DNA of 27,306 nucleotides from a virus (lineage: Duplodnaviria > Heunggongvirae > Uroviricota > Caudoviricetes): IMG/VR virus record IMGVR_UViG_3300000301_000054. One strand, 5' to 3'. A model generated the notes under the pieces. That model was not told where the DNA came from. It saw only the letters and a program-made list of their open reading frames with translations, and did no database searches. Each line of letters starts with the position of its first letter. The stretch's first letter is position 1. A program made the position numbers and the translations under genes. Positions 2,676-23,118 of the stretch are shown piece by piece.

Positions 2676-4709
2676 TTACTTAACTTGGTGGCCTGGTTTA
2701 GCACCAGCATCCGGGCTTAACAGGAAGATATCTTTTCCGCCAGGGCCAGCAGCCATCACCATGCCTTCAGAGATACCGAAGCGCATTTTACGCGGAGCCA
2801 GGTTAGCCACCATAATTGTGTGACGACCAATCAGTGCCTGTGGGTCTGGATAAGCAGAACGGATGCCTGAGAAGACATTACGCTTTTCACCACCGAGATC
2901 CAGTGTCAGGCGCAACAGTTTGTCAGAACCTTCAACAAACTCCGCGTTTTCAATCAGCGCCACGCGCAGGTCAACTTTGGCGAAGTCATCAAAGGTGATG
3001 GTTTCCTGAATCGGATCGTCTGCCAGCGGGCCAGTAACTGGCGCGGCAGTGGCTTTCACTTCTTCTTTAGAGGCTTCCACCAGTGCTTCAACCTGCTTCA
3101 TGTCGATGCGGTTATACAGTGCTTTGAACGGATTAACTTTGTGCGCCAGCAGCGGTTGCTGGATGCCATCCCAGGTCAGTTCCGTATTGAGGAATGCTTC
3201 TGCACGCTCGGTCAGTTTCGGCAGTACCGGTTTCAGGTACGTCATCAGTACGCGGAACAGGTTAATGCCCATTGAGCAAATCGCCTGCAGGTCGGCATCG
3301 CGACCTTCCTGTTTCGCCACCACCCACGGAGCCTGTTCATCGACATAGCGGTTAGCCAGGTCAGCCAATGCCATGATTTCACGGATAGCTTTACCAAATT
3401 CACGGCTTTCCCATGCTTCGCCAATCACTTCAGCGGCATCAGTAAAGGTTTTGTACAGTTGCGGGTCAGCCAGTTCGCTTGCCAGCACGCCGTCAAAACG
3501 CTTGTTGATAAAGCCTGCATTACGGGAGGCCAGGTTAACCACTTTGTTCACGATATCGGCATTCACGCGCTGAACGAAATCCTCCAGGTTGAGATCGATA
3601 TCATCAATGCGCGAAGAGAGTTTCGCAGTGTAGTAGTAACGCAGGCTGTCAGCGTCAAAATGATTCAGCCAGGTGCTGGCTTTAATAAAGGTGCCGCGAG
3701 ACTTGGACATCTTCGCGCCGTTCACCGTCACATAGCCGTGAACAAACAGGTTGGTCGGCTTGCGGAAGTTGCTGCCTTCCAGCATGGCAGGCCAGAACAG
3801 GCTGTGGAAGTAAACAATATCTTTACCGATGAAGTGGTACAGCTCGGCGGTGGAGTCTTTCTTCCAGTATTCATCGAAGCTGGTGGTATCGCCGCGCTTG
3901 TCGCACAGATTCTTGAAAGAACCCATGTAGCCAATCGGTGCGTCCAGCCAGACGTAGAAGTATTTGCCTGGTGCGTTCGGAATTTCAAAACCGAAGTAAG
4001 GCGCATCGCGGGAGATATCCCACTGTTGCAGGCCGGATTCAAACCACTCCTGCATTTTGTTTGCCACCTGCTCCTGCAACGCGCCGCTGCGGGTCCATGC
4101 CTGCAACATTTCGCTGAAAGAAGGCAGATCAAAGAAGAAGTGTTCGGAATCACGCATTACCGGGGTAGCGCCAGAAACCACCGATTTCGGCTCGATCAAT
4201 TCAGTCGGGCTATATGTTGCGCCGCAGACTTCACAGTTATCGCCGTATTGATCTGGCGCTTTACATTTCGGGCAGGTGCCTTTTACAAAACGATCCGGCA
4301 GGAACATGCCTTTTTCCGGGTCGTACAACTGAGAGATAGTGCGGTTTTTAATAAAACCGTTCTCTTTCAGGCGAGTATAGATAAGCTCAGACAACTGACG
4401 GTTCTCTTCGCTGTGCGTCGAGTGATAGTTGTCATAGCTGATGTTAAAGCCTGCGAAATCAGTCTGGTGTTCCTGACTCATTTCGCCAATCATCTGCTCC
4501 GGTGTGATACCAAGCTGCTGTGCTTTCAGCATGATCGGCGTACCGTGGGCATCGTCGGCACAGATGAAATTAACCTCGTGGCCGCGCATTCGCTGGTAAC
4601 GAACCCAGACATCAGCCTGGATGTGCTCCAGCATATGGCCGAGGTGGATTGAGCCGTTAGCGTACGGCAGCGCGCACGTCACCAGAATTTTCTTCGCGAC
4701 TTGGGTCAT
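2676..4709 (-). CDS. metG: Methionine--tRNA ligase (677 aa)
   Basis: Translation from [29 protein letters not shown] (class I HIGH motif), KMSKS present, C-terminal tRNA-binding domain; near-identical to enterobacterial MetG as recalled. The ORF-track start at 4838 is a 43-codon upstream extension; ATG at 4707..4709 chosen. Confidence 0.95.
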
Positions 4710-4866
4710 AGTAGGCATTACTTCTTTGTAGTGAAAAGGGGCTTGATAGTAACAAAATGGCCTTATGTCTGCCATGTGATAACAGCATTTCTCATAAATG
4801 ATTAAATGTCGTAGCTGGAGTACACTACAAGGCGACAATTGCGCAAATTAAAATAAAGGAGACGGG

Positions 4867-6126
4867 ATGAGCGAGTCCAAATCGCCGGATGCCCTGAGAG
4901 CAATGGTAGCCGGTACGCTGGCTAATTTTCAGCACCCAACCCTGAAACACAACCTGACTACGCTTAAAGCGTTACACCATGTTGCGTTGATGGATGACAC
5001 ACTGCATGTCGAACTAATCATGCCTTTCGTGTGGAATAAGCCTTTTGAAGACCTGAAAGAGCAATGTAGTGGTGATCTGCTCCGTATCACTGGCGCAAAG
5101 GCTATTGACTGGAAGCTGTCGTACAACATTGCCACGCTTAAGCGCGTCAAAAACCAACCAGGCATTAATGGCGTTAAGAACATTATCGCCGTCAGCTCAG
5201 GCAAGGGCGGCGTGGGTAAATCCTCCACAGCGGTAAACCTGGCACTGGCTTTGGCTGCTGAAGGTGCGAAAGTTGGTATTTTGGATGCCGATATCTACGG
5301 GCCATCAATTCCAACCATGCTTGGNNNNNNNNNNNNNNNNNNNNNNNNNNNNNNNNNNNNNNNNNNNNNNNNNNNNNNNNNNNNNNNNNNNNNNNNNNNN
5401 NNNNNNNNNNNNNNNNNNNNNNNNNNCAACTTCACCGGACGGTACTCACATGGCACCGATTATGTCTCATGGCCTGGCAACCAATTCAATTGGTTATCTG
5501 GTCACTGACGACAATGCGATGGTGTGGCGTGGACCGATGGCCAGCAAGGCGCTGATGCAGATGTTGCAGGAAACACTGTGGCCTGATCTGGACTATCTCG
5601 TTCTCGATATGCCGCCGGGCACTGGTGATATTCAGTTGACGNNNNNNNNNNNNNNNNNNNNNNNNNNNNNNNNNNNNNNNNNNNNNNNNNNNNNNNNNNN
5701 NNNNNNNNNNNNNNNNNNNNNNNNNNNNNNNNNNNNNNNNNNNNNNNNNNNNNNNNNNNNNNNNNNNNCATCGCGCTGATCGATGCGAAGAAAGGCATTG
5801 TGATGTTCGAAAAAGTCGAAGTGCCGGTACTAGGTATCGTCGAAAACATGAGTGTGCATATTTGCAGTAACTGCGGTCATCACGAGCCAATTTTTGGCAC
5901 CGGTGGCGCACAGAAACTGGCCGAGAAATACAACACGCAGTTGTTAGGCCAAATGCCTCTTCATATCTCTCTTCGTGAAGATCTGGATAACGGAACACCA
6001 ACCGTTATTAGTCGTCCAGATAGCGAATTTACGGCTATTTATCGTGACCTCGCAGATCGCGTTGCTGCCCAAATGTATTGGCAAGGTGAAGTAATACCTG
6101 GCGAAATCGCATTCCGCGCAGTGTGA
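4867..6126 (+). CDS. apbC: Fe-S cluster carrier ATPase ApbC/Mrp (interrupted by N runs 5325..5426 and 5642..5768)
   Basis: Three segments read [16 protein letters not shown]...[21 protein letters not shown] (deviant Walker A), [15 protein letters not shown]...[12 protein letters not shown], and ...[16 protein letters not shown]...EIAFRAV; segments fall in different frames only because of the N runs. Confidence 0.9.
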
Positions 6127-6132
6127 TAAAAA

Positions 6133-6151
6133 GGCGGTGCAATGCACCGCC
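6133..6151. terminator. Hairpin GGCGGTGC-AAT-GCACCGCC between convergent apbC and the UmuD'-like gene; U-tract on the minus-strand side
   Basis: Perfect 8-bp GC-rich stem; flanked by AAAAA on plus (TTTTT on the minus transcript). Confidence 0.6.
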
Positions 6152-6163
6152 TAATCAGTTCTC

Positions 6164-6626
6164 CTACATCACGGGACAATCATCAAACTCGCCACTTCTT
6201 GCGTCGTTGATAATGTGAGTGATCACACCAAACACGGCATTGCTGCCCGTGCATCCATCGTCATCCTTTGGCAATGCTTCCTTCTTACCGGTTCTTAAAT
6301 CCTCCAGATGCTGACGTGGGTACTTCCGGTATCTTTTTNNNNNNNNNNNNNNNNNNNNNNNNNNNNNNNNNNNNNNNNNNNNNNNNNNNNNNNNNNNNNN
6401 NNNNNNNNNNNNNGCGATATTCCCCATCCAGAGCGCATACAAGCAGAGAACCATCAACCGGGGTAAGTGAGGAATCGACCACCAGCAATGCACCCTGTAA
6501 TATTCCCTCACGATGATGACTATCAGCTGCCCTCATGAAGTAGGTCGCTGAAGGATGTCTAATTATCTGCTGATCAAGAGAAATACGGCTCTCAGCATAA
6601 TCCGCCGCAGGAGAAGGGAAGCCCAT
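6164..6626 (-). CDS. UmuD'-like S24-peptidase-domain protein, N-terminally truncated at the position of the UmuD cleavage site (interrupted by N run 6339..6413)
   Basis: Starts MGFPSPAADYAESRISLDQQIIRHPSATYF...LLVVDSSLTPVDGSLLVCALDGEY, aligning to UmuD from Gly25 onward; C-terminal segment ...AVFGVITHIINDA matches the UmuD C-terminus; SD AAGAGG upstream. Confidence 0.7.
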
Positions 6627-6641
6627 AATACTCGCCTCTTA

Positions 6642-6661
6642 ATACTGTATATACATACAGT
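6642..6661 (-). promoter_or_regulatory. LexA (SOS) box TACTGTATATACATACAGTA overlapping a sigma70-like promoter (TTCAAA-17-TATACT) for the UmuD'-like gene
   Basis: CTGT-N8-ACAG palindrome matching the LexA consensus; 16-35 nt upstream of the ATG at 6626. Confidence 0.7.
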
Positions 6662-6962
6662 ATATGTTGAAGCTATATATTTTTGAACTCTATCTCTTAA
6701 AAAAAGATGTTAATAAGATGCTAACTATTGAAAGGCATAAATATATACAATTCCAACAAACGTTATTTTTAACAAATTTTTTCTCTCTGTTGACTTTTGC
6801 GAAAGCCTTGTCTGGCCTAAATTGCGCGGAAGCTACTTTTTCCTTCCTGAGTTATCCACAGAGTTATGCACTTGCATGCATAACCTATACACACTATCTT
6901 AATTCGCAAGACACTGATGTTGCGGTATTGAAGGTTCATTGGGTTAAAAATAGACATTAAAA

Positions 6963-6990
6963 AGCCCAGTTGACTAGGCTGGGCTTTTTA
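6963..6990. terminator. Rho-independent terminator hairpin AGCCCAG...CTGGGCT flanked by A-run and T-run (bidirectional)
   Basis: 7-bp stem, about 8-nt loop, TTTTT at 6986..6990 and AAAA upstream. Confidence 0.7.
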
Positions 6991-7026
6991 AAAGGAAACA
7001 GAGTTTGCGGCTCTGTTCCTGAGCCA

Positions 7027-7215
7027 TAAGTATCTGGCGACTGAATTAAGATTAACCGAATGTACTGGATTCATCAAGAAACGTTGAGTGGTCATACCAG
7101 GTAATAATGACCATTTACTAAACATCGTTGTTCTCAAAGAAGATTTAAGTCCAGGTTTTTGGTGACTCTAAAACCTTACCTTAACTCGAAATCGTGCCGT
7201 AAGTATCTGGCGACT
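7027..7215. repeat. 16-bp perfect direct repeat TAAGTATCTGGCGACT (7027..7042 and 7200..7215); second short repeat AAATCGTGCCG (7188..7198 and 7310..7320)
   Basis: Read directly; located in the non-coding junction between the UmuD'-like gene and the phage-type gene run. Confidence 0.7.
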
Positions 7216-7289
7216 ACAGATATTGCAACTGCAAAGGCAAGCCCAAAGGTATTTGCAGCTAGGCGCGATAAAACTAAGTGAGGCCTGTT

Positions 7290-7373
7290 ATGGTTAACTT
7301 ACTGTTCAAAATCGTGCCGCCGATGTTCGCGATTATCAAAGCGATCATTGAGTACGTAAACCAGCGTCCATAA
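7290..7373 (+). CDS. Candidate 27-aa hydrophobic peptide MVNLLFKIVPPMFAIIKAIIEYVNQRP
   Basis: GTGAGG SD 6-7 nt upstream of ATG; followed by terminator hairpin 7387..7411 and a T-run; not in the ORF track because it is under 60 aa. Confidence 0.3.
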   Translation: MVNLLFKIVPPMFAIIKAIIEYVNQRP

Positions 7374-7386
7374 CGCTAGTTGCTAC

Positions 7387-7411
7387 AGGCCCCATCAAGA
7401 GCATGGGGCCT
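7387..7411 (+). terminator. Hairpin AGGCCCCAT-CAAGAGC-ATGGGGCCT followed by a T-rich tract
   Basis: Perfect 9-bp stem; T-rich downstream on plus strand. Confidence 0.55.
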
Positions 7412-7428
7412 CTTTATCGTACTATTGC

Positions 7429-8094
7429 TTATTTTTTACGGACTGAGTTGTTCACTGCTCTGGCAATCTTCTCCCGCAATTGCTGCGTTCCGTGGTACTG
7501 AACCGCAATATCTCTCAACTCGTTCACCAGTTCTCGAATCTGGTGATCTTTAAGCTCATTATTTGGGTGATTGGTAACAACTCTGGTTAATTCACCCTTG
7601 TCTTTTGCTCTTACGTATGCAGCTCTTGTGCATTCGACCCATGTATTACCGCCTACATTAACTTCGTAGATTAGGCTGGACTTATCTGTCAATTCGGAAC
7701 AAATACGGGCCGTGGTCTGGCAACTAGAGCATTCGCAGTTATCGCGGAAACCGTGGTCTACTGGCTTCGGTTTCACATCATCAACTTTTTCTACCCTATC
7801 GGAATTTAAATACTTCGAAGCCTTGCTATGCCAATCGCTGGTTTTAGGATCTTGTCCATCCATCAAACGCCAGGCTTCAGCGATTAACTCATAACTAGTG
7901 ACTGTAGCTTCCTGCGCATCACCAATAAGTCGTGTAATCTCTCTTTCAAGCCGACCGCCTAACTCCGTTTTAGTGCAATGTTCTGACCAATCGCCAGCCT
8001 CAAGAAGCGCGAGAATGCTTAAAATATCGTCCAATAGAACGGTAGTATTATCGACTTCCTTCTGAAACTCACCGGCTACTGATTTATGCATCAT
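7429..8094 (-). CDS. Hypothetical phage-type protein (221 aa), last gene of the minus-strand run
   Basis: Start overlaps the stop of the upstream gene by 4 nt; Cys cluster CECSSC. Confidence 0.55.
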   Translation of the reverse strand: MMHKSVAGEFQKEVDNTTVLLDDILSILALLEAGDWSEHCTKTELGGRLEREITRLIGDAQEATVTSYELIAEAWRLMDGQDPKTSDWHSKASKYLNSDRVEKVDDVKPKPVDHGFRDNCECSSCQTTARICSELTDKSSLIYEVNVGGNTWVECTRAAYVRAKDKGELTRVVTNHPNNELKDHQIRELVNELRDIAVQYHGTQQLREKIARAVNNSVRKK

Positions 8095-8744
8095 TCGTCA
8101 TCCTCATCCGAGTCATCCTCATCACAGGATGAGAGTAGTGGGTTAGTCATTCGCCCTACTTGAGTGGCGTAGCCACGCCGACAGAGATTGCGCAGCACAC
8201 TGTATATTTCGAACATCTCGGTTCGTTCATCGCCAACATCAAGCTCAGATGCTATAGCGTGGCATTCAGTCGCGAGAGCCGATATTTTCTGAAATAACTC
8301 TGCATTATTCACTGTTCGACTCCTGCGGCGTTCTGGTAGTGGCATCCAGTGTGTGACATTGCTAATCAGACCATATTCATTAGTTTGAGGATGGTTGCCG
8401 TTATCGTCTCCGTATTTAAGACTCTCCATAAAGCCATAATGCCTATCACCATTAACGCTCACAAAGCCGTAATAAGCAGGTATAACGCCGATCTCACACG
8501 TAATCAGCAAAGGAAAACCAGTTCTCCAATTTAGCTCGCCGATTACAGGCATTCGCTCACTACAGCTTATCCAACCATCCTTAGATGCGGCTGTATTGGC
8601 ATAGGCCTTACGGTGCTTCTGTAGCTCTGCTGCAATCGCTCTCACGACTTCAACTGGTGCCCTTGCAGCAAACTCAATGTTGGTGATCAGCTCATTAAGA
8701 TATTTCTCGCTTGGGTAGCATTTCTTATTGTTAACGGTGGTCAT
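8091..8744 (-). CDS. DUF551-like phage protein with acidic C-terminal tail
   Basis: DGWISCSERMPV...VTHWMPLPE, the hallmark of the DUF551 family common in enterobacterial phages; C-terminal DEDDSDEDDE. Confidence 0.6.
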   Translation of the reverse strand: MTTVNNKKCYPSEKYLNELITNIEFAARAPVEVVRAIAAELQKHRKAYANTAASKDGWISCSERMPVIGELNWRTGFPLLITCEIGVIPAYYGFVSVNGDRHYGFMESLKYGDDNGNHPQTNEYGLISNVTHWMPLPERRRSRTVNNAELFQKISALATECHAIASELDVGDERTEMFEIYSVLRNLCRRGYATQVGRMTNPLLSSCDEDDSDEDDE

Positions 8745-22638: not shown

Positions 22639-23118
22639 TCATAGATNNNNNNNNNNNNNNNNNNNNNNNNNNNNNNNNNNNNNNNNNNNNNNNNNNNNNN
22701 NNNNNNNNNNNNNNNNNNNNNNNNNNNNNNNTCGATGGTGAGAGTCGGCTAAAGCGGCACGGAGTCGAGGATCGTGCACCAGCGCAGCGATAAGCAGATC
22801 GCCTTTATGCTCCGCTAATGTGCGCTTAATATGCTTCTCATAACTGGTGCCATTCGGTACGAGATGAAGCCAGTCATAATCAACGCCAAAATCTTTCAGC
22901 CATCGTTTAGTTGGCGCTTCAAGAGTTTCAGAGCGGCTACTGATAAGCACCACTTCAGCCCCTGAGCGAGCAAAACCACGCAACATACGGCTGGTGGGGA
23001 AAATGAGTTCATCACCGGCAATGAGCTGGCCTGCATCCGCGTCAGATACTGATTTACGATGGCTGGCATTTGCCAGCACACCTTCAATTTCGCATAAGAC
23101 ATACATACCTCTTGCCAT
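22639..23118 (-). CDS. Putative HAD-fold hydrolase (candidate nucleotidase) with non-canonical E-x-E in place of the D-x-D motif (interrupted by N run 22647..22731)
   Basis: MYVLCEIEGVL resembles HAD motif I but with Glu for Asp; VVLISSRSE is motif-II-like; ATG 1 nt after the ThyA stop. Confidence 0.3.
   Translation of the reverse strand: MARGMYVLCEIEGVLANASHRKSVSDADAGQLIAGDELIFPTSRMLRGFARSGAEVVLISSRSETLEAPTKRWLKDFGVDYDWLHLVPNGTSYEKHIKRTLAEHKGDLLIAALVHDPRLRAALADSHHRXXXXXXXXXXXXXXXXXXXXXXXXXXXXXL

Follow-up and report, generated by a model that had tools for sequence, protein, structure and literature searches.

The gene on the minus strand at positions 6164..6626 of the window, i.e. the whole 27,306-nucleotide stretch of Caudoviricetes virus DNA analysed here (IMG/VR record IMGVR_UViG_3300000301_000054), is virtually certain to be humD ('homolog of umuD'). 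The protein starts where UmuD cleaves itself, a near-consensus LexA box lies just upstream of the gene, and no umuC accompanies it. The proposed mechanism, in which the gene would supply the host's error-prone polymerase with a ready-made UmuD'-like subunit during the SOS response, is probable, and the reading that joins the identification to this mechanism is very probable. The finding is already known. HumD has been described since 1999, is a named family curated as such at NCBI and is already annotated on an element of the Cyrano/pLF82 type; it therefore carries little weight as a discovery. Its value is one of calibration, since an earlier note on this DNA had recovered the defining features of HumD, namely: the cleavage-site start, the LexA box and the orphan status, from the raw sequence alone. 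The core of that interpretation is correct and coincides with the published definition of P1 HumD, of which it is an independent rediscovery, while the interpretation overall is partly supported. The features of the locus are as follows.

6164..6626, minus strand: humD coding sequence, 129 aa after gap closure (ATG at 6626..6624, TAG at 6166..6164)
6414..6626, minus strand: humD codons 1-71, with codon 72 lying across the gap
6164..6337, minus strand: humD codons 73-129 and the TAG
6339..6413: scaffold gap of 75 N in place of 2 nt (plus strand: 'AC'; gene strand: 'GT' from GTA, the codon of Val72)
6635..6640, minus strand: Shine-Dalgarno sequence AAGAGG, 8 nt 5' of the ATG, read from the sequence
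6643..6662, no strand given: LexA (SOS) box TACTGTATATACATACAGTA, 19/20 match to consensus, 16 nt 5' of the humD ATG
6659..6687, minus strand: sigma-70-like promoter by consensus match (9/12), with -35 TTCAAA at 6687..6682, a 17-nt spacer and -10 TATACT at 6664..6659
6132..6152, minus strand: intrinsic terminator, consisting of a hairpin of 9 pairs (7 G-C) and then TTTTAT

As given in the window, humD is not a single reading frame. The flanks of the N run at 6339..6413 are in different frames, and the two halves of the gene belong to separate entries of the ORF list, at 6285..6626 and 6164..6511. Taken at face value, this would indicate a broken gene or an assembly artefact in which the frame changes across the N run. 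Such an explanation is extremely improbable, because in all three near-identical relatives compared at this point, namely: a 113-kb E. coli plasmid, a chromosomal lambdoid prophage and phage Cyrano (the last by flank matching), only 2 nt stand in place of the 75 N and the result is one 390-nt ORF encoding 129 aa. The coding sequence flanking the gap is 99.6-99.9% identical to Cyrano, and the sole difference from the plasmid relative, at 6320, is synonymous (Tyr78, with the codon position worked out by hand).

The same error recurs along the window. In every case that can be measured, i.e. the 10 of the 17 N runs whose flanks were found in relatives, the run exceeds the true gap by 73-88 nt; the N runs are thus mis-sized scaffold gaps, and the apparent frameshift in humD is a consequence of one of them. 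Alignment across the gap and comparison of N-run lengths both speak against a pseudogene. The earlier note had worried that the N run might hide the Ser/Lys dyad. This concern has fallen away, since the only bases missing are two in the Val72 codon; both Ser36 and Lys73 are readable, the Lys73 codon at 6335..6337. The gene does not extend further in the other direction either: an in-frame TAA lies five codons 5' of the ATG, so that no N-terminal extension of humD is possible and no in-frame upstream sequence with a cleavage site is present.

Profile searches place the protein firmly within one family. It matches NCBIfam NF051876, the equivalog 'HumD family translesion DNA polymerase', at 219.8 bits (cut-off 120; E = 8e-66) and from end to end, with protein residues 1-129 on positions 1-129 of the 129-position profile. 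The UmuD model (NCBIfam NF007621) gives 87 bits, which is below its cut-off of 110, the Pfam Peptidase S24 family (PF00717) gives 37.9 bits against a gathering score of 23.3, and a LexA profile matches weakly at 27 bits. The protein is 100% identical to CYRAN_98 of phage Cyrano, 91.5-92% identical to P1 HumD (tblastn) and 64-73% identical to the UmuD-like proteins of N15, phiKO2, HK140 and HK639. In RefSeq, the identical protein WP_000506720.1 is labelled either 'HumD family translesion DNA polymerase' or 'S24 family peptidase'; the former name is loose, as HumD is not itself a polymerase but an accessory subunit. Given the family match and the existing label, the gene is not the unexplained oddity for which the earlier note had taken it.

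The element that carries the gene is nearly identical to a known one. Over its full length the window is collinear with phage Cyrano (94.6-100% identity), and Cyrano is pLF82, an SSU5-like phage-plasmid of E. coli LF82 that forms siphovirus particles (PMC9928086). Its annotation includes a Pol III alpha subunit, an epsilon-like exonuclease, a RecA-like protein, a ribonucleotide reductase, ThyX and DHFR. Among 5,426 complete genomes of E. coli, 709 contain a match to the humD region, in most cases on a plasmid.

The 129-residue protein, MGFPSPAADYAESRISLDQQIIRHPSATYFMRAADSHHREGILQGALLVVDSSLTPVDGSLLVCALDGEYRVKRYRKYPRQHLEDLRTGKKEALPKDDDGCTGSNAVFGVITHIINDARSGEFDDCPVM, starts with M-GFPSPAADY. In HMMER alignments, Gly2 falls on Gly25 of full-length UmuD (8gmt_B) and on residue 1 of the UmuD' chain 1umu_A (E = 7e-23), as the earlier note had proposed; the start codon of humD thus takes the place of Cys24 in the Cys24/Gly25 self-cleavage site of UmuD. 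The whole core aligns with the UmuD' structures 1umu, 1i4v and 1ay9, with E-values down to 7e-23. An N-terminal arm with a Cys/Ala-Gly self-cleavage site is absent from the alignment to UmuD, where the protein begins at the Gly. The start is a property of the family rather than of this copy. Among 121 sequences, made up of the query and 120 homologue cluster representatives from 561 clusters found, 110 begin with M-GFPSP, and most of the other 11 have an upstream extension that ends in a Met just before GFPSP and look like mis-called starts. Structure prediction with AlphaFold2 gave a mean pLDDT of 42.8 and a pTM of 0.34 from an alignment of 99 sequences with a 98%-identical homologue at its head, an input that was too shallow (all sequences at least 67% identical).

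The active site of UmuD can still be traced in the protein. Ser36 aligns with UmuD Ser60 and Lys73 with Lys97, and the GDSM context of the nucleophile is reduced by a one-residue deletion to ADSH, the alteration that the earlier note had pointed out. Cleavage of UmuD can occur between subunits. A trans-acting S24 protease, which would use Ser36 and Lys73 to cleave its partner in a heterodimer (host UmuD, LexA or a phage repressor), is therefore conceivable from the alignment of the two residues, from the possibility of inter-subunit cleavage and from the conservation of the Lys in 118 of the 121 sequences. It is nevertheless highly improbable in view of the rest of the family: the nucleophile position, which is Ser in 76 sequences, is taken by Thr in 43 and by Ala in 2, the Lys is replaced by Met in HK639, and the GDSM motif, degraded to ADSH here, reads ATH or NTC in other members. 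Because of this variation, catalysis is predicted to be no longer under strict selection in HumD proteins, which is what would be expected of a protein that has nothing in itself to cleave.

In the control region, TACTGTATATACATACAGTA is the only site in the window with three or fewer mismatches to TACTG(TA)5CAGTA, and no such site arose in 100 shuffles. The bare CTGT-N8-ACAG core, by comparison, occurs by chance in 35% of shuffles, and the support for the LexA box thus comes from the 19/20 match together with its conserved position. The earlier note was right about a near-consensus box and slightly off in its coordinates, which are 6643..6662 and not 6642..6661. Its promoter, TTCAAA-17-TATACT, was found on the minus strand as described, with the -10 element overlapping the box by 4 nt; the expected transcription start also lies within the box. 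The region holds 2 promoter-like matches of similar quality where 3.1 are expected, i.e. no enrichment, so that the assignment rests on position, i.e. on the overlap with the box and the distance to the gene. A Shine-Dalgarno sequence, AGAGG or GAGG, occupies the equivalent place in P1, HK639 and phiKO2. At the other end, the terminator starts 12 nt past the humD stop, between humD and the convergent apbC, which is the next gene, in agreement with the earlier note.

The position of the box is retained across the family. Among 80 IMG/VR loci, 73 carry a LexA box upstream of the gene, 16-19 nt 5' of the ATG in 70 and 43 nt 5' of it in 3 more; the 7 loci that lack one belong to a subgroup in which the gene follows another reading frame and whose proteins share about 71% identity with that of the window. 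All six diverged phages compared have a predicted LexA box upstream, whereas the rest of their upstream DNA is just 52% identical. The box is found at the homologous position in P1 (as an annotated LexA binding site), N15 and HK639; the annotated LexA site of phiKO2 is slightly further upstream, and HK140 has a small ORF between its box and the gene.

A divergent ORF at 6664..6960 (98 aa) was considered as a second gene sharing the LexA box, in the manner of P1 lxr or phiKO2 dinI, and was rejected as non-coding. It has no family match in a profile search, and in a variant about 90% identical over 6600..7000 it is frameshifted and filled with stops. With this ORF non-coding, humD is predicted to be a self-contained, single-gene unit gated by LexA.

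It should be noted that the gene has no polymerase partner on the element. A Y-family polymerase was found neither in the window nor in the 108-kb Cyrano genome (best tblastn E = 0.18, with UmuC and DinB as queries), nor does one appear in the Cyrano annotation, and no homologue of UmuC or DinB was found within 3 kb at any of the 80 IMG/VR loci. No umuC follows as an operon partner either, humD being succeeded by its terminator and then by convergent apbC. The orphan status claimed in the earlier note is thereby borne out.

The closest described counterpart is HumD of P1, which likewise has 129 aa and shares the start at the equivalent of UmuD Gly25 and the EFDDCPV tail. Its GenBank record states that it 'functionally complements E. 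coli UmuD''. The similarity in size, start and sequence (about 92% identity) agrees with the earlier suggestion that the protein mimics activated UmuD'. At the DNA level, similarity to P1 (80-87%) covers 6165..6662, beginning at the stop codon and ending with the LexA box. P1 has its annotated LexA site 19 nt 5' of the gene, compared to 16 nt in the window, the two boxes differ at a few spacer positions, and neither gene has an adjacent umuC. The surroundings are different: P1 humD lies between the divergent lxr and phd-doc, whereas that of the window lies between captured apbC-metG and the Ea22-like early region of an SSU5-like phage-plasmid. The window has no lxr homologue, and its own divergent ORF 6664..6960 is not conserved.

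Other temperate enterobacterial phages, including N15 (gp26), phiKO2 (gp23), HK140 and HK639, encode members of the same family with the same start, tail and upstream LexA box. In these four, the genes are 'moron'-type inserts of one gene each, close to genes for tail fibres, partition or an integrase, and their proteins mostly have Thr at the nucleophile position, where that of the window has Ser. phiKO2 and HK140 have a dinI homologue just upstream on the opposite strand, and in phiKO2 the annotated LexA site lies between this dinI homologue and the umuD-like gene; the window is without dinI.

Compared to E. coli UmuD/UmuD', the accessory subunit of Pol V (PDB 1UMU, 1I4V and 1AY9), the protein belongs by sequence to the same S24 fold family. 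Over a core of about 115 residues the identity to UmuD is 44% (MAFFT), the GFPSPAADY motif and the Ser and Lys positions are kept, and both genes are under LexA regulation, which is predicted in the case of humD. HumD differs in the altered active-site motif, in a 10-residue C-terminal extension, in the lack of a umuC operon and in the lack of the 24-residue N-terminal arm with its Cys24/Gly25 site; without this arm and site, RecA-mediated activation should not be needed.

The S24 core is also common to UmuDAb of Acinetobacter and to LexA. UmuDAb is an S24 repressor with an N-terminal DNA-binding domain and a cleavage site. Such a DNA-binding domain and cleavage site are present in UmuDAb and LexA but not in HumD, which thus cannot act as a regulator of this type.

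A different kind of regulator would be an SOS-controlled anti-repressor acting on the lysis-lysogeny switch of the phage-plasmid, comparable to Tum of phage 186 or the Gifsy anti-repressors. The predicted LexA control is a property of known anti-repressors as well, and the putative repressor of Cyrano, CYRAN_45, is small, with about 128 aa going by the annotation (42188-42574), and might be without a self-cleaving domain and need a helper. Such a role for HumD is nevertheless highly improbable. NCBIfam and Pfam profile searches gave matches to S24, UmuD and HumD profiles only and to no anti-repressor or DNA-binding domain, and since the UmuD' core and the 10-residue tail account for all 129 residues, there is no room for a further domain. 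The gene also resides in phages with unrelated immunity (P1, N15, phiKO2, HK140, HK639 and P22-like prophages), and the P1 record notes UmuD' complementation. Both this complementation and the domain content speak against the regulator or anti-repressor offered in the earlier note, whose other suggestion, a 'modulator of host translesion synthesis', comes near the accepted view.

In the proposed mechanism, host LexA would occupy the box over the -10 element and transcription start in an undamaged cell and keep humD off, as suggested by the sequence and by the P1 annotation. Upon DNA damage, RecA* would bring about LexA self-cleavage, and humD would be transcribed as a single-gene unit ending at its own terminator. 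The product would be a UmuD'-sized protein of the S24 fold, and because it would be made directly in the 'cleaved' form, the slow RecA-mediated conversion of UmuD to UmuD' would be skipped. HumD is then expected to dimerise and to join host UmuC, RecA and ATP in a Pol V-like translesion polymerase, with which damaged host or element DNA would be replicated at the price of mutations. The present analysis itself establishes orthology, the place where the protein starts, the operator, the orphan status and conservation across the family; the capacity for UmuD' complementation is carried over by analogy with P1 HumD, and on the same analogy we infer LexA control, SOS induction and partnership with host UmuC for the window copy.

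According to McLenigan and co-workers in 1999, P1 HumD reportedly restored mutagenesis in recA430 lexA(Def) cells, and it is said to form dimers and to bind UmuC and RecA filaments. Strong complementation was reportedly obtained only from a high-copy plasmid, native expression being poor, and these two points leave the natural role of HumD not settled. Elsewhere, humD is named as a LexA-regulated SOS gene (PMC9603915), and its product is described as already activated UmuD (PMC7092418). By CRISPRi, P1 humD is dispensable for lytic growth (PMC10695390), which fits an accessory role of the 'moron' type.

The least explored aspect of HumD is its C-terminal tail, EFDDCPV[M/I/L]. As [S/N/T][G/A]EFDDCPV[M/I/L], it runs 10 residues past the C-terminus of UmuD, which is without it. 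In the alignment of 121 sequences, conservation reaches at least 90% at each of the last eight positions, the final residue (79% Met) excepted, and the tail is more conserved than most of the HumD core. Such conservation in a segment absent from UmuD hints at an extra or different partner, and the Pol III alpha subunit, epsilon-like exonuclease and RecA-like protein encoded by the element itself could be the real ones.

The tail also enters into another account of the protein, in which HumD is chiefly a replication modulator, i.e. a UmuD'-like brake on, or decoy for, Pol III (alpha, epsilon, beta) or RecA filaments, with the tail as a docking peptide. Either the host proteins or those encoded by the element (Pol III alpha, epsilon-like, RecA-like) could be the targets; the presence of the latter, together with the conserved tail, argues for this account. 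The C-terminal tip of SSB has the sequence DFDDDIPF. In its acidic-hydrophobic pattern the tail is reminiscent of this tip. A reference cited in PMC4713147 reports, by its title, an action of the umuD gene products on the Pol III alpha-beta complex. Against such a role, HumD also occurs in P1, N15, phiKO2 and small lambdoid phages, where no phage polymerase gene was seen in the few kb inspected around it, and the P1 record notes complementation of UmuD' by HumD. On balance we consider a chiefly modulatory HumD unlikely. It is more doubtful still that the tail is a short docking peptide mimicking the acidic tip of SSB, an idea built on the conservation and on this resemblance. If true, the mimicry would provide HumD with a partner that UmuD' lacks, either an SSB-binding repair or replication protein or one of the element's Pol III alpha, epsilon-like and RecA-like proteins, and HumD would be more than a pre-cleaved UmuD'.

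On the preferred reading, namely a ready-cleaved partner for host UmuC, genes of this kind would provide temperate phages and phage-plasmids with a ready-made activator of the host's error-prone polymerase in the SOS response. A higher survival and mutation rate of lysogens exposed to DNA-damaging antibiotics could be the result.

Several minor observations concern the DNA around the gene. A DnaA box, TTATCCACA at 6852..6860, was discarded as being at chance level, with at least one match in 67% of shuffles; P1 has annotated DnaA boxes in a region 75% similar to the one that holds it. At gathering thresholds, Rfam gave no RNA family in the whole window, and a sub-threshold match to AgrB is the lead for a candidate type I toxin-antitoxin system upstream of humD. 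The candidate would comprise a small minus-strand RNA of about 90 nt (7045..6957) and a plus-strand mRNA spanning 7196..7373, with a putative toxin of 27 aa. The metG-apbC pair beside humD is a captured one. Finally, the humD cassette has been transferred between phage-plasmid and lambdoid prophage.

The C-terminal tail of HumD, the pre-cleaved UmuD′ homologue, extends ten residues past the point at which UmuD ends, and this extension is a difference between the HumD family and UmuD as a whole.

6167-6196, minus strand: HumD tail, residues 120-129, a 10-residue extension past the UmuD C-terminus

The family consensus of the tail is [S/N/T][G/A]EFDDCPV[M/I/L], in which each of the seven positions of EFDDCPV is at least 90% conserved among the 121 sequences compared (the query and 120 homologue cluster representatives), while the final residue is Met in 79% of them. 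The acidic C-terminal tip of SSB, DFDDDIPF, is similar to this tail. To our knowledge, the C-terminal tail of HumD has not been discussed. As for proteins with which HumD may interact, the annotation of Cyrano, an SSU5-like phage-plasmid collinear with the window, lists its own Pol III alpha subunit, an epsilon-like exonuclease and a RecA-like protein, as well as UvsW and UvsY homologues and SbcCD. All of these are possible alternative partners of HumD.

The region upstream of humD contains two further elements, namely a DnaA box accompanied by a near-box, and a candidate type I toxin-antitoxin locus at 6957-7420.

6852-6860, upstream of humD: perfect DnaA box, TTATCCACA
6864-6872, upstream of humD: near-box, TTATGCACT
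about 7045 to 6957, minus strand: candidate small RNA of ~89 nt, supported by folding against shuffles
7196-7215, plus strand: putative small-RNA target, complementary to the small-RNA 5′ tail at 19 of 20 positions
7290-7373, plus strand: small hydrophobic ORF of 27 aa, MVNLLFKIVPPMFAIIKAIIEYVNQRP, with a Shine-Dalgarno sequence and its own terminator
7387-7411: terminator of the 27-aa ORF, from the sequence

The sequence around the DnaA box and near-box is 75% similar to the upfN/upfO region of phage P1, for which the P1 record likewise gives two predicted DnaA boxes. A variant with diverged flanks retains both boxes; a single consensus DnaA box is at chance level for the window.

The layout of the toxin-antitoxin candidate is like that of zorO/orzO or dinQ/agrB. 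In the small RNA, a free 5′ tail would be followed by an internal hairpin and then a terminator, and this unit folds far more stably than its shuffles (z = −5.6); its match to Rfam AgrB, at 27.6 bits, is below the gathering score of 40. The complementarity between the 5′ tail and its target, which lies ~75 nt upstream of the 27-aa ORF, is seen as a direct repeat (7023-7042 and 7196-7215). In variants that are ~93% identical, the ORF carries six synonymous versus two amino-acid changes, its start codon changes from ATG to GTG, and its 5′ UTR is almost invariant. Searches of the locus against Pfam and NCBIfam gave no match, and neither RefSeq nor the Cyrano record has any annotation there.

The humD cassette is common to the phage-plasmid and to a lambdoid prophage. 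Window 6063-8580 was compared with the chromosome of E. coli SB0258h1, which carries a P22/lambda-like prophage next to a tRNA-Thr gene that lies downstream of proA. Over the cassette, the candidate toxin-antitoxin locus and the genes that follow, the two are 97.6-99.4% identical. The common block begins within the final 64 nt of apbC, so that the prophage holds an apbC 3′ remnant; the remnant implies that the humD block moved from a phage-plasmid context to the lambdoid prophage. Unlike this longer block, the similarity between P1 and the window begins at the humD stop codon and extends no further than the LexA box.

The window contains 17 N runs, from 750-956 through 22647-22731. Ten could be measured against relatives, and all ten exceed the real gap by 73-88 nt; several correspond to just 0-7 nt in the relatives. 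Reading frames across these runs cannot be trusted, as exemplified by apbC, whose length in the window (4867-6126) is 1,260 nt, compared with 1,101 nt as annotated in the near-identical plasmid relative.

The phage-plasmid also carries a divergent metG-apbC pair (2676-6126), an arrangement that is the same on the E. coli chromosome.

within 2676-6126, minus strand: metG, divergent from apbC
within 2676-6126, plus strand: apbC, divergent from metG

Its metG is ~94% identical to chromosomal metG. The segment has 221 matching places on E. coli plasmids, ~220 of which are copies like that of the window (95-99% identical). It looks like a captured housekeeping segment, which would supply a lysogen with a second methionyl-tRNA synthetase. 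In the Cyrano record, the apbC copy is annotated as ‘MinD’.
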